64,000 bases of DNA from Thermoplasmata archaeon (lineage in GTDB: Archaea > Thermoplasmatota > Thermoplasmata > Lutacidiplasmatales > UBA184). Positions 2,572-51,655 of this stretch are shown piece after piece (the stretch's first letter is position 1; every line of letters begins with the position of its first letter). The notes beneath the pieces are model-generated. The model had not been told where the DNA came from and ran no database searches. It saw only the letters and a program-made list of their open reading frames with translations. The stretch lies in the NCBI GenBank assembly GCA_021817605.1, contig JAKAUN010000004.1:68427-132426 (forward strand), in the 5' to 3' direction. The translations under genes and the position numbers were made by a program.

Positions 2572-3486
2572 GTGGGGACCCACGGTGCGCAGCGAGACAC
2601 GGCGGATTGGCTCGAGAACGACCCGTACGTAGAGTACCTTCGGGGCGACCCGGGCGAGGGACTTCGCCTCGGCCAGGAGCTCCGGGTGGTCTTCGTGGCG
2701 GTGGGCGGCGGCGCGATACGCGTCGGCCGCGAGATCGCGCGAGCCCACCTTCGCTACGTCGAGAGCGTGGCCATCAACTGTGACCCCAAGGTCCAGGGAT
2801 TCGAGGATTTCGACCGCAGGGTCTGCCTCAGCCCGGAGTCCGGCGCCGAGGTCGACACCGGTGGCTCGGCGGTCGTCGGAGCGGTCCTCGCCCGCGCGGC
2901 GGAGCCCGCCCTGCGGCGCATCTTCCGTGGCGCAGCCTTCGTTGTCCTCGTGGGGAGCCTGGGCGGCGGCGCGGGAAGCGGCGCCTTCCCTTTCCTCCTC
3001 GATGTCGCCTCCCGCAACGCGGGGGTCGTGAGCGCCTTCGTCATCAAGCCGTTCCGCGCGGAGGGCAACCGCCGCGCCCTCGCCGACCGCGCCCTCGGGA
3101 GCCTCCACCTCCTCGAGGCGTACAACGAGAAGCGAGAGCGCGGCAGCGCGAGCCTCCAGATCCTCGACAACGAGAGCCTCGTCCCGAGCCTCAAGCACAA
3201 GGCGTTCAGCGCGGTCTCCCGACACTGGGCCGACGCCCTCCGCGACCACCTCGAGAACGCGATCCTCGCCCCGGCCGAGGCGATCCTCGGACCGGCGCAG
3301 ATGAGCCATCTCCTCGAGTCGGCGGTCCCTCCGTCCGGTCTTGAGGAGGGTCTCCCCACTCTGGTGCACGGCCCGAGCCCCCCAACCCCCGTGCCCGCGA
3401 TGCCCCCCGCGCTACCGGCGGCGGCCAGCGAGGCGGAGCTCACCTTCGAGGTCGAGGCTGGCGCTCGGCCGCCCGCAGCCTCCTGA
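2572..3486 (+). CDS. divergent short FtsZ/tubulin-superfamily GTPase (FtsZ-like paralogue)
   Basis: Motifs match FtsZ in order. VVFVAVGGGAIRVGREIA corresponds to FtsZ T1 GVGGGGxNA. INCDPKV corresponds to NTDAQAL. VVLVGSLGGGAGSGAFPFLLDVA corresponds to the tubulin signature T4 (GGGTGSG in tubulin, GGGTGTG in FtsZ). VIKPFRAEGNRRALADRALGSL corresponds to the FtsZ TKPFSFEGRRR motif. ILDNESL is T6-like. The C-terminal domain looks truncated and is replaced by a Pro/Ala-rich tail. Start chosen at GTG 2572, 5 nt after GGGGAG. The upstream part of ORF 2431..3486 overlaps the RHH gene. Confidence 0.7.
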   Translation: MGTHGAQRDTADWLENDPYVEYLRGDPGEGLRLGQELRVVFVAVGGGAIRVGREIARAHLRYVESVAINCDPKVQGFEDFDRRVCLSPESGAEVDTGGSAVVGAVLARAAEPALRRIFRGAAFVVLVGSLGGGAGSGAFPFLLDVASRNAGVVSAFVIKPFRAEGNRRALADRALGSLHLLEAYNEKRERGSASLQILDNESLVPSLKHKAFSAVSRHWADALRDHLENAILAPAEAILGPAQMSHLLESAVPPSGLEEGLPTLVHGPSPPTPVPAMPPALPAAASEAELTFEVEAGARPPAAS

Positions 3487-50367: not shown

Positions 50368-51228
50368 GTGAGCGAACCGCGCACGTCGGGCGGCAAGGGG
50401 GAGGCCCGAGACATTCACGAGGCCCCGAGGGAGCTCCCCGTTCTGGCTCCCACCGCCGCCCTGCCGCCGCCCGGACCCGTCCCGGCCGAACGGCCCGCCC
50501 CGCGCGCGGTGGAGCGGGGGGTCGTCCTCTTCGACCTGGACGGGACCCTTCTGGACGACCTCGGGGGGATCAGCGAGGTCGCGGCGAGCGTGCTGAACCA
50601 GTCGTTCGGCACCCCGCCGGAGGAGGGAAGGGTCCACTACCTCGCGACCACCGGGATGCCCTTCGAGGCGCAGCTCGCCCAGCTCTATCCCGAGGTTCCC
50701 GCCGCCCAGCGCGCCCAGACCGCCCGGGTCTTCCACCAGAGGAAGACCACGGAGGCCTACGCGCAGGCGAAGCCGTTCCCGGAGGTGCCCAAGCTACTGA
50801 AACGGCTCTCCCAGGAGCGCTGGACCCTCGCCGTGTCGACAGGCGCCGAGCGGGAGATGGCCGAGCTTCTCCTCGAGCGGGAGGGGATCCGCTACTGGTT
50901 CGAAGCCGTGCTCGGATCGGCGGACGGCACCAAGAGAGAGCACCTGGCGGAGTACCGGCGCCGCTACCCGGACGTCCCGATGTTCCTGGTCGGCGACTCC
51001 CGCTTCGACATGGAGGCCGCTGCCTCACTCCCCGGGGTCATCGCCGTGGGACGGGCAAGCCGGCTCCCGTTCTGGACGCTGACGCCGAGCGACCTCAAGA
51101 AGTGGGGCGCCGCCTGGGCGGAGTATTCGCTTGGAGAGCTTCCCGAAGCGCTCGGCCGCCTGGCCGCCTCCCCGCCCGCGAAGGGAAGGCGGGGCACGAC
51201 GAAGGCTCGCCGCAAGAACTCGTCGTAG
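50368..51228 (+). CDS. HAD-superfamily hydrolase
   Basis: Motif I VVLFDLDGTLLDD, and LVGDSRFDMEAA. Confidence 0.75.
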   Translation: MSEPRTSGGKGEARDIHEAPRELPVLAPTAALPPPGPVPAERPAPRAVERGVVLFDLDGTLLDDLGGISEVAASVLNQSFGTPPEEGRVHYLATTGMPFEAQLAQLYPEVPAAQRAQTARVFHQRKTTEAYAQAKPFPEVPKLLKRLSQERWTLAVSTGAEREMAELLLEREGIRYWFEAVLGSADGTKREHLAEYRRRYPDVPMFLVGDSRFDMEAAASLPGVIAVGRASRLPFWTLTPSDLKKWGAAWAEYSLGELPEALGRLAASPPAKGRRGTTKARRKNSS

Positions 51229-51333
51229 GGCCGGGACCGAGAGTCTCCCGGCGCGGGGCACCCCCGCGCCGATTTGAACCCGGGTCGAGGGATCCACAGT
51301 CCCCCAGGATAACCAAGCTACCCCATCCCGGCC
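51229..51333 (-). tRNA. tRNA-His (anticodon GTG) with G-1 and ~30-nt insertion (putative non-canonical intron) in the T-loop region
   Basis: Folded by hand from the reverse complement. The acceptor stem GCCGGGA pairs with TCCCGGC, with discriminator C73 and an encoded G-1 (the His identity elements). The D-arm is GGGG...TCCT with AGCTTGGTT in the loop. The anticodon stem is GGGGA/TCCCT with loop CTGTGGA (U33, anticodon GTG, R37). The T-stem is CCGGG/CTCGG with TTCAAAT. About 30 extra nt containing a perfect 9-bp hairpin (GGCGCGGGG...CCCCGCGCC) are inserted between the T-loop and the 3' T-stem strand. No encoded CCA. A TATA-like CTTTTTCAT box lies ~28 nt upstream at 51358-51366. Confidence 0.6.
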
Positions 51334-51357: not shown

Positions 51358-51366
51358 ATGAAAAAG
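51358..51366 (-). promoter_or_regulatory. TATA-like box for tRNA-His
   Basis: ATGAAAAAG on the plus strand is CTTTTTCAT on the minus strand. It sits 25-33 nt upstream of the tRNA 5' end. Confidence 0.3.
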
Positions 51367-51376
51367 GTTGCCGACC

Positions 51377-51655
51377 CTAGGGCGCCGGCCCACCGGGGGG
51401 AAGTTTCCCGCCGGTCTCGGCCGCTTGGAGCAGCTGTTCACGGTAGGTACGGGCTTCCCGCGCCGCTCCGAAGAAGAATCCTCCTACGACTATCGCCGCG
51501 GCCGCGGCGAGCCATGCCCCGAAGAGCTCGAACCCGGCGCCGGCGAGGACGAGCGCGAGGAGGAGCAACGCTCCCAGCCCCACGGTGATGCCCCCACCCA
51601 GGGCGAACGCAGTCTCCCGCAGCACGGTGATGTAGCCTCCCCTGGTCGCCTCCAC
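51377..51655 (-). CDS. hypothetical small membrane protein (weak)
   Basis: Two hydrophobic helices. Codon usage is less GC3-biased than its neighbours. Overlaps the tRNA-His promoter region. Confidence 0.25.
   Translation of the reverse strand: MEATRGGYITVLRETAFALGGGITVGLGALLLLALVLAGAGFELFGAWLAAAAAIVVGGFFFGAAREARTYREQLLQAAETGGKLPPGGPAP

Follow-up and report, generated by a model that had tools for sequence, protein, structure and literature searches.

The tRNA-His(GTG) gene on the minus strand of the stretch of contig JAKAUN010000004.1 analysed here (64,000 nucleotides, hereafter the window) is very probably a functional gene of a high-GC Thermoplasmata host, with a 30-nt intron of the archaeal bulge-helix-bulge (BHB) type inserted into its T-loop between positions 59 and 60. 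An earlier note on this DNA had proposed a non-canonical archaeal T-arm intron, possibly at 59/60, and this proposal is supported by the fit of the insert to a BHB structure, by the tRNA that ARAGORN recognises once the insert is deleted, by covariation among relatives, and by the archaeal nature of the host; most of the checks that the note proposed favour it. Elements of this kind are known, but they are uncommon in this lineage.

The gene spans 105 nt and its exons are contiguous and in normal order, which excludes a split or permuted tRNA gene; CCA is not encoded (Table 1). The encoded G-1, the discriminator C73, the GTG anticodon, U33 and a purine at position 37 (here G37), all listed by the earlier note, are indeed read in the sequence. 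The same note had all four stems pairing; the stems do form, but three of the four are imperfect, with G10·U25 and a U13·U22 mismatch in the D-stem and G52·U62 in the T-stem. There are 37 nt between the T-stem strands instead of 7, as previously counted, and the insert contains a perfect hairpin; however, this hairpin is 10 bp long and not 9 bp. The insert is placed at 51243-51272, the note having given roughly 51242-51271.

The 59/60, 60/61 and 61/62 registers (51272-51243, 51271-51242 and 51270-51241) all yield the same 75 nt on excision, as both junctions carry a UC repeat. In our own reading, which is backed by the relatives, only 59/60 puts both junctions in 3-nt bulges flanking a 4-position helix, and a hand check of the 60/61 and 61/62 registers places neither junction in a bulge and yields no BHB. 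At 59/60 there is one bulge on each strand, on the 3' side of that strand's segment of the central helix, with the predicted cut after the second bulge nucleotide, and the flanking helices are the 5-bp T-stem and the 10-bp inner hairpin. The motif in the window is a near-strict 3-4-3 BHB, with three central pairs and one A·G. The hairpin is not statistically unusual in itself, as there are three perfect 10-bp hairpins in the window against a mean of 1.7 in shuffled sequences; its significance derives from its placement in a tRNA T-arm and its conservation with covariation in relatives.

Several other types of insert were considered and rejected. The intron sequence has a single occurrence in the window, which rules out a repeated palindromic element. 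A self-splicing group I or group II intron, whose ribozyme core spans hundreds of nucleotides, is rejected given an insert of only 30 nt and no Rfam match at E <= 1 in the window, and the weak Rfam matches around the gene at E <= 10 include no intron family. An intron containing a box C/D guide, of the tRNA-Trp type, is also rejected, as UCGGCGCGGGGGUGCCCCGCGCCGGGAGAC has neither a C (RUGAUGA) nor a D (CUGA) box and is 30 nt long rather than about 60 nt or more.

ARAGORN reports zero tRNAs in the intact 64-kb window, and an Rfam scan of the whole window, including other RNA genes and disrupted tRNAs, returns nothing at the gathering score and nothing at E <= 1; a local Rfam scan of the interrupted gene gives a partial tRNA match of 14.4 bits (model positions 8-63, E = 3.5). 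With the 30 nt deleted, ARAGORN calls a 75-nt tRNA-His(gtg), and both this call and the uninterrupted relatives show that removal of the insert restores a standard cloverleaf with the 7-nt T-loop UUCAAAU; the predicted spliced junction of the mature tRNA is UUCAAAUCUCGG. For comparison, uninterrupted tRNA-His genes score 54.9 bits (a Methanoregula metagenome-assembled genome, MAG) and 54.4 bits (another Thermoplasmata MAG) with the Rfam tRNA model RF00005, whose gathering score is 29, and the intron-bearing relative L062 is, like the window, undetected in the Rfam scan. Aligned globally, the predicted product agrees with the Methanoregula gene at 65 of 75 positions, and its differences from the Thermoplasmata gene are limited to the D-loop and a few other positions. 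The 25-mer CCGGGTTCAAATCTCGGTCCCGGCC, which joins the T-arm across the predicted junction to the acceptor 3' strand, is present uninterrupted in 17 metagenome contigs, and two of these, with 53-54% GC (L130 and L143), encode an uninterrupted tRNA-His that differs from the predicted product at two of 75 positions.

Relatives were collected by searching a single genome of each species for the exon core GGACTGTGGATCCCNNNNNCCGGGTTCAAA, with at least 120 stretches listed, and by adding four contigs that encode homologues of the neighbouring HAD-family hydrolase; duplicates were removed, and the locus counts below and their fractions are among the matches listed plus these contigs. The search pattern itself fixes this core, which runs from the anticodon stem to the T-loop, and identity there is not evidence. 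An insert directly follows GGTTCAAA / GGUUCAAA in at least 79 loci, mostly Thermoplasmata MAGs of the Lutacidiplasmatales/UBA184 kind, with lengths from 16 to 49 nt; it is 28-33 nt long in 75 listed loci and 32 nt in 54 (de-duplicated). In all four contigs found through the hydrolase, a tRNA-His gene with an insert in this position lies beside the hydrolase stop codon. A further 39 loci are without an insert (Methanoregula, Thermococcus, Micrarchaeota and low-GC Thermoplasmata), and six are truncated or have their interruption at another place. All 74 genes whose insert measures 28-33 nt encode G-1 and C73, and in the exon parts outside the search pattern variation within the clade is confined to the D-loop and a few other positions. 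Two of the records collected, L050 (JAKBKR010000011.1) and L083 (JAADCS010000070.1), are titled 'bacterium' and 'Thermotogota bacterium' but carry archaeal-type tRNA-His genes, and L050 holds the 32-nt intron of the clade, identical to that of the Thermoplasmata MAG L060; both are probably mis-binned or mislabelled.

The same position is also occupied in tRNA-His genes of more distant lineages, including Hadarchaeota (L046 and L113, 16 and 22 nt), Methanomassiliicoccales (L126, 37 nt) and other Thermoplasmata (L120/L116, 49 nt; L055/L066, 31 nt), and several of the distant-lineage introns have a perfect UUCA/UGAA central helix. These distant introns may go back to a single ancient gain or to recurrent gains at a hot spot. 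The suggestion that the intron is lineage-informative stands to the extent that it is fixed in a large high-GC Thermoplasmata clade, but it is weakened by the use of the same site in Hadarchaeota, Methanomassiliicoccales and other Thermoplasmata.

A BHB-compatible structure, for which the earlier note had proposed a search, fits at 59/60 and is conserved among these relatives. The central helix has a perfect four pairs in 51 of the 79 intron-bearing loci and three pairs in the other 28, and it is perfect in the precursor encoded by the complete chromosome OY970259.1; its intron strand is UGAG, with four pairs, in 40 of 79 and GGAG in 19 of 79 including the window, and the 3' bulge is ACU in 46 of 79 and AGU in 19 of 79. 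In the 53 distinct genes with 32-nt introns, the intron side varies between G and A opposite U54 and between A and G opposite U55 with the pair always kept, and the G opposite C56 is invariant.

Covariation was scored on the BHB structure in the 54 genes whose introns are 32 nt long (53 distinct sequences), aligned without gaps. In these 53, the cells of the BHB are paired at 93.2% (86.1% in shuffles), standard pairs occupying 100% of the T-stem and 90% of the inner-helix cells, and pairing falls to 30-62% when the 3' partners are shifted by 1-3 columns. Two-sided changes are seen in seven of the ten inner-helix pairs and in none elsewhere; there are 70 double-change cells (23.6 in shuffles) and the covariation score is 0.203 (0.081 in shuffles), each value being reached by 0 of 500 shuffles. 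An alignment-free count anchored on the exon borders finds 588 of 666 cells paired, as compared to 473 +/- 8 when arms are swapped between sequences. Across the T-stem and central helix there are 104 G·U but only one A·C apposition, indicating that these helices form only on the tRNA strand. The structure of the intron, and not its sequence, is conserved among relatives.

We note that the apex of the hairpin, GGGG...CCCC (51262-51265 and 51255-51258; alignment columns 19-22 and 28-31), is nearly invariant in the clade and that its base, beside the BHB, varies with compensatory changes, which is the reverse of what a BHB intron needs.

Table 1. Features of the interrupted tRNA-His gene and of its immediate surroundings (window coordinates).
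Feature	Coordinates	Strand	Sequence or remarks
Pre-tRNA-His(GTG) gene, 105 nt	51229..51333	-	Direct reading; G-1 = 51333, discriminator C73 = 51229
5' exon, 61 nt	51273..51333	-	G-1, acceptor 5' strand, D-arm, anticodon arm, variable loop, T-stem 5' strand, T-loop U54-A59
Acceptor 5' strand	51332-51326	-	GCCGGGA; then U8 G9
D-arm		-	GGGU/AGCUUGGUUA/UCCU, then G26; direct reading
Anticodon arm		-	GGGGA/CUGUGGA/UCCCU; anticodon GTG 51297-51295; U33 and G37 present
Variable loop		-	CGAC; between anticodon arm and T-stem
T-stem 5' strand	51283-51279	-	CCGGG
T-loop	51278-51272	-	UUCAAAU
Intron, 30 nt, between positions 59 and 60	51243..51272	-	UCGGCGCGGGGGUGCCCCGCGCCGGGAGAC; register picked by BHB geometry
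Outer helix, 5 bp		-	T-stem; BHB flanking helix
5' bulge	51272..51274	-	A58 A59 / U; cleavage predicted at 51273/51272 from the BHB rule (two 3-nt bulges, 4-position helix)
Inner helix, 10-bp hairpin	51249..51271	-	CGGCGCGGGG (51271-51262), loop GUG (51261-51259), CCCCGCGCCG (51258-51249)
Central helix, intron strand	51245..51248	-	GGAG, facing T-loop U54 U55 C56 A57 (51278-51275): U·G, U-A, C-G, A·G mismatch
3' bulge	51242..51244	-	A C / U60; cleavage predicted at 51243/51242 from BHB geometry
3' exon, 14 nt	51229..51242	-	U60, T-stem 3' strand, acceptor 3' strand, C73
T-stem 3' strand	51241-51237	-	CUCGG
Acceptor 3' strand	51236-51230	-	UCCCGGC
Promoter-like element	51359..51371	-	GCAACCUUUUUCA / GCAACCTTTTTCA; purine-rich BRE-like AA, then T-run at -32..-28 from G-1
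HAD-family hydrolase gene, convergent	50368..51228	+	Pfam PF00702/PF13419; neighbour, not part of the tRNA

We infer the cleavage sites, the enzymes and the occurrence of splicing from established archaeal tRNA splicing. Transcription would begin a few nucleotides upstream of G-1, directed by the promoter-like box centred near -30. In the precursor, U54-A57 would pair with the intron segment GGAG, with the T-stem outside, the 10-bp hairpin inside, and the two 3-nt bulges exposed, and the archaeal splicing endonuclease (EndA) would cut once in each bulge. An RtcB-type ligase would then join A59 to U60, giving the 7-nt T-loop and a 75-nt tRNA; RNase P would leave G-1 in place and CCA would be added post-transcriptionally.

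Several observations weigh against this interpretation. The central helix in the window contains the A57·G mismatch and is not a textbook strict 3-4-3 BHB; such an A·G is tolerated in a third of the intron-bearing loci. In an alternative conformer G 51248 pairs with U 51272 and moves the 5' bulge by one position; in the subclade of the window this bulge would be A57-A59 and a cut after its second nucleotide would leave a 6-nt T-loop, and we judge this conformer to be non-productive. The minimum-energy fold has the T-stem, an open 6x6 loop and the hairpin but no central helix, which appears in the minimum-energy folds of just two of 74 relatives, and for the window the explicit BHB conformer (within the cloverleaf) is 2.2 kcal/mol less stable than the open-loop form. 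Because energy minimisation does not predict the central helix, the case for it rests on the comparative evidence. In the inner helix the numbers of G·U (19) and A·C (14) are about equal, so the hairpin alone does not tell which strand is under selection. Finally, the group that contains the Thermoplasmata is reviewed as encoding only the alpha'2 type of EndA (PMC5829648), and reviews limit this type to strict BHB motifs at the canonical position (PMC4090602, PMC5829648); the EndA of Lutacidiplasmatales is expected to be alpha'2.

It is possible, but unlikely, that the intron has an added role beyond that of a neutral passenger. There is room for such a role because the intron is fixed order-wide at one site of what is probably the sole tRNA-His gene, because an alpha'2 enzyme is expected, because the A·G mismatch is tolerated, and because the hairpin apex is near-invariant. 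The tRNA T-arm and 3' end are a usual target of integrases, and the intron may shield them from mobile-element integration; alternatively, the excised and probably circular intron may be functional, the hairpin may be shared with the HAD gene, or the range of EndA may be widened.

A rival reading, in which the hairpin is also or mainly kept for the opposite strand as a 3'-end or stability hairpin of the convergent HAD mRNA, appears very unlikely. In its favour, the HAD stop codon lies 20 nt before the hairpin and abuts the tRNA in 58 of 74 relatives, the inner helix lacks a strand bias as described above, and the GGGG/CCCC apex is not required by a BHB intron. However, introns at the same position in other lineages (L046, L113, L120, L126) have quite different sequences, and the G·U pairs of the central helix and T-stem (104 against one) are specific to the tRNA strand. 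Archaeal transcription termination moreover uses T-runs rather than hairpins.

We consider it highly improbable that the 30 nt are retained in a working tRNA whose T-arm is enlarged by the hairpin as an expansion segment. The stability and the conserved structure of the hairpin speak for this reading, but the conserved UUCAAA and U60 rebuild a 7-nt T-loop only with the insert removed, and the 3' end of the intron keeps its complementarity to U54-C56 and the 3-nt bulges, for which an expansion hairpin has no need. Established tRNA structure requires contact between the T-loop and the D-loop (positions 55/56 with G18/G19), which a 30-nt insert at 59/60 would disrupt.

The least probable account, which we regard as extremely improbable, is a dead tRNA gene broken by a small palindromic insertion or mobile-element scar with another copy supplying tRNA-His. 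It is favoured in that neither ARAGORN nor Rfam recognises the gene and the search for a second copy covered 64 kb of genome only, but the insert is at the same site in at least 79 loci and G-1, C73 and the upstream box are kept in the 28-33 nt group, the compensatory changes in the insert are not expected of a decaying pseudogene, the insert sequence is not repeated in the window, no uninterrupted gene with the tRNA body of the clade is among the at least 120 genome matches listed, and all 20 tRNA isotypes are reported in the type genome AcS3-62 using tRNAscan-SE -A (PMC9287336). A tRNA pseudogene is similarly rejected by the presence of G-1 and C73 in 74 of 74 relatives, by exon parts outside the search pattern that are nearly invariant, and by conservation of the promoter-like box.

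Archaeal BHB tRNA introns have been known for more than twenty years, and as an intron of this class the insert shares BHB geometry, and presumably the EndA/RtcB pathway, with canonical 37/38 introns (strict hBHBh'), but it lies in the T-loop, not the anticodon loop, and the T-stem takes the place of the anticodon stem as outer helix. Position 59/60 is listed among the non-canonical archaeal intron sites (PMC4090602), and the closest parallels are in tRNA-Cys(GCA) and tRNA-Pro(GGG) of Candidatus Micrarchaeum (ARMAN-2) and in many Thermoproteales tRNAs, which have insertions at the same T-loop site. In ARMAN-2 the 59/60 intron of pre-tRNA-Cys is cut in vitro by the endonuclease of that organism and pre-tRNA-Pro has a strict BHB at 59/60 (PMC3239211). 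The logic is shared with ARMAN-2, in that the intron pairs through its 3' end with the T-loop and the T-stem forms the outer helix, and both the tRNA-Cys intron and this one are short (13 and 30 nt, respectively; PMC3239211, PMC4090602), although the tRNA-Cys motif is a relaxed hBH whereas both bulges are kept here (near-strict hBHBh'). The tRNA-His isotype and a Thermoplasmata host, rather than a crenarchaeon or DPANN archaeon, also distinguish this intron from those of ARMAN-2 and Thermoproteales, as does its clade-wide fixation; the latter are scattered.

Non-canonical BHB introns are sought by default in tRNAscan-SE 2.0, and 25 were found in 6970 Euryarchaeota tRNA genes, including six in three Methanomassiliicoccales genomes and one in five Thermoplasmatales genomes (PMC8450103 Table S7). 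The intron described here belongs to the same rare Euryarchaeota class and, with the Thermoplasmatota examples, to the same phylum, the published table giving counts only (PMC8450103). The authors of Lutacidiplasmatales, in reporting tRNAs for all 20 amino acids in AcS3-62, do not mention introns (PMC9287336), and in our literature searches no account of a clade-wide 59/60 intron in the tRNA-His of this order came up, which is not proof that none exists. According to reviews, introns are restricted to the canonical position in Euryarchaeota whose endonuclease is of the alpha4 or alpha'2 type (PMC4090602), and the Lutacidiplasmatales intron would be a clade-wide and apparently obligatory exception to this statement. 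The approximately 75 natural variants of one BHB substrate, including the A·G forms, could be used to probe the substrate range of alpha'2-type enzymes.

There is also a consequence for annotation. ARAGORN misses the gene in 47 of the 79 intron-bearing loci, including the window, and calls a tRNA-His in the other 32, but with lengths of approximately 74-96 nt as compared to true lengths of 103-109 nt; in the single call checked (L005, c[3904,3978]) one end falls inside the intron. As ARAGORN and the Rfam tRNA model miss or mis-bound the gene, pipelines that rely on them would list no tRNA-His for this abundant group of soil archaea and lower the apparent quality of its genomes.

The host is probably a high-GC Thermoplasmata archaeon of the order Lutacidiplasmatales (GTDB UBA184), judging from the similarities given here. 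An exact protein match leads to contig DAHVQH010000004.1 of assembly GCA_027317885.1. The G+C content of the window is 69.9%, its genes include those for topoisomerase VI A and B, succinyl-CoA synthetase, CoaBC and the HAD hydrolase, and homologues of the HAD protein (68-83% identity) are from Thermoplasmata archaea wherever a source is named. Relatives with the same tRNA arrangement include UBA184 and AcS/SubAcS MAGs, which were described as the order Lutacidiplasmatales with 67-70% GC and genomes of about 2 Mb from acidic soils (PMC9287336).

The TATA-like box noted previously at -28 is present in the window and conserved upstream of the gene in relatives. Among 73 distinct upstream regions the consensus at -38..-25 is GcAAACCTTTTCtt, with an A+T fraction of 0.9-1.0 at -36/-35 and -31..-28 in a background of 70% GC, and CGT at -3..-1 is common to the relatives. 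The box fits a pair of archaeal B recognition element (BRE) and TATA sequences with a start a few nucleotides before G-1 and is a putative promoter. A 6-bp hairpin followed by a T-run, AACCTTTTTC, lies at 51370-51389 on the minus strand between a 92-codon open reading frame (51377-51655, minus strand) and the tRNA, and this T-run could serve both as the terminator of the upstream reading frame and as the TATA-like box of the tRNA. At the other end of the gene the TAG stop codon of the HAD gene (51226-51228) directly abuts C73 on the opposite strand, in agreement with the earlier description, and in 58 of 74 relatives C73 is followed by the reverse complement of this codon, CTA; the close convergent layout is thus conserved.

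Other variations were seen among the tRNA-His genes collected. Three low-GC Thermoplasmata MAGs, L009 (about 3000-3050), L017 and L034, have in the D-loop another non-canonical insert, about 30 nt long, GTAGC[CATCCGTTCGGGTCCCCGTACGGACTACAA]TGGCAGC, and their close relatives (compare L042 and L058) have the insert-free D-loop GTAGCTTGGCAGC. The uninterrupted genes of Methanoregula/Methanoregulaceae (L027, L029, L030, L039, L065, L109) have T at -1 and do not encode G-1. Metagenome contigs L134, L139, L140, L142 and L128/L135/L138/L144 share the identical 25-nt 3' part and have either an intron at 37/38, as in GGGACTGTGG[CGGCCCGCAATATGGGTTGCAGAC]ATCCC, or a longer insert upstream. One tRNA-His body is therefore found with no intron, with a 37/38 intron or with a 59/60 intron, depending on the lineage.

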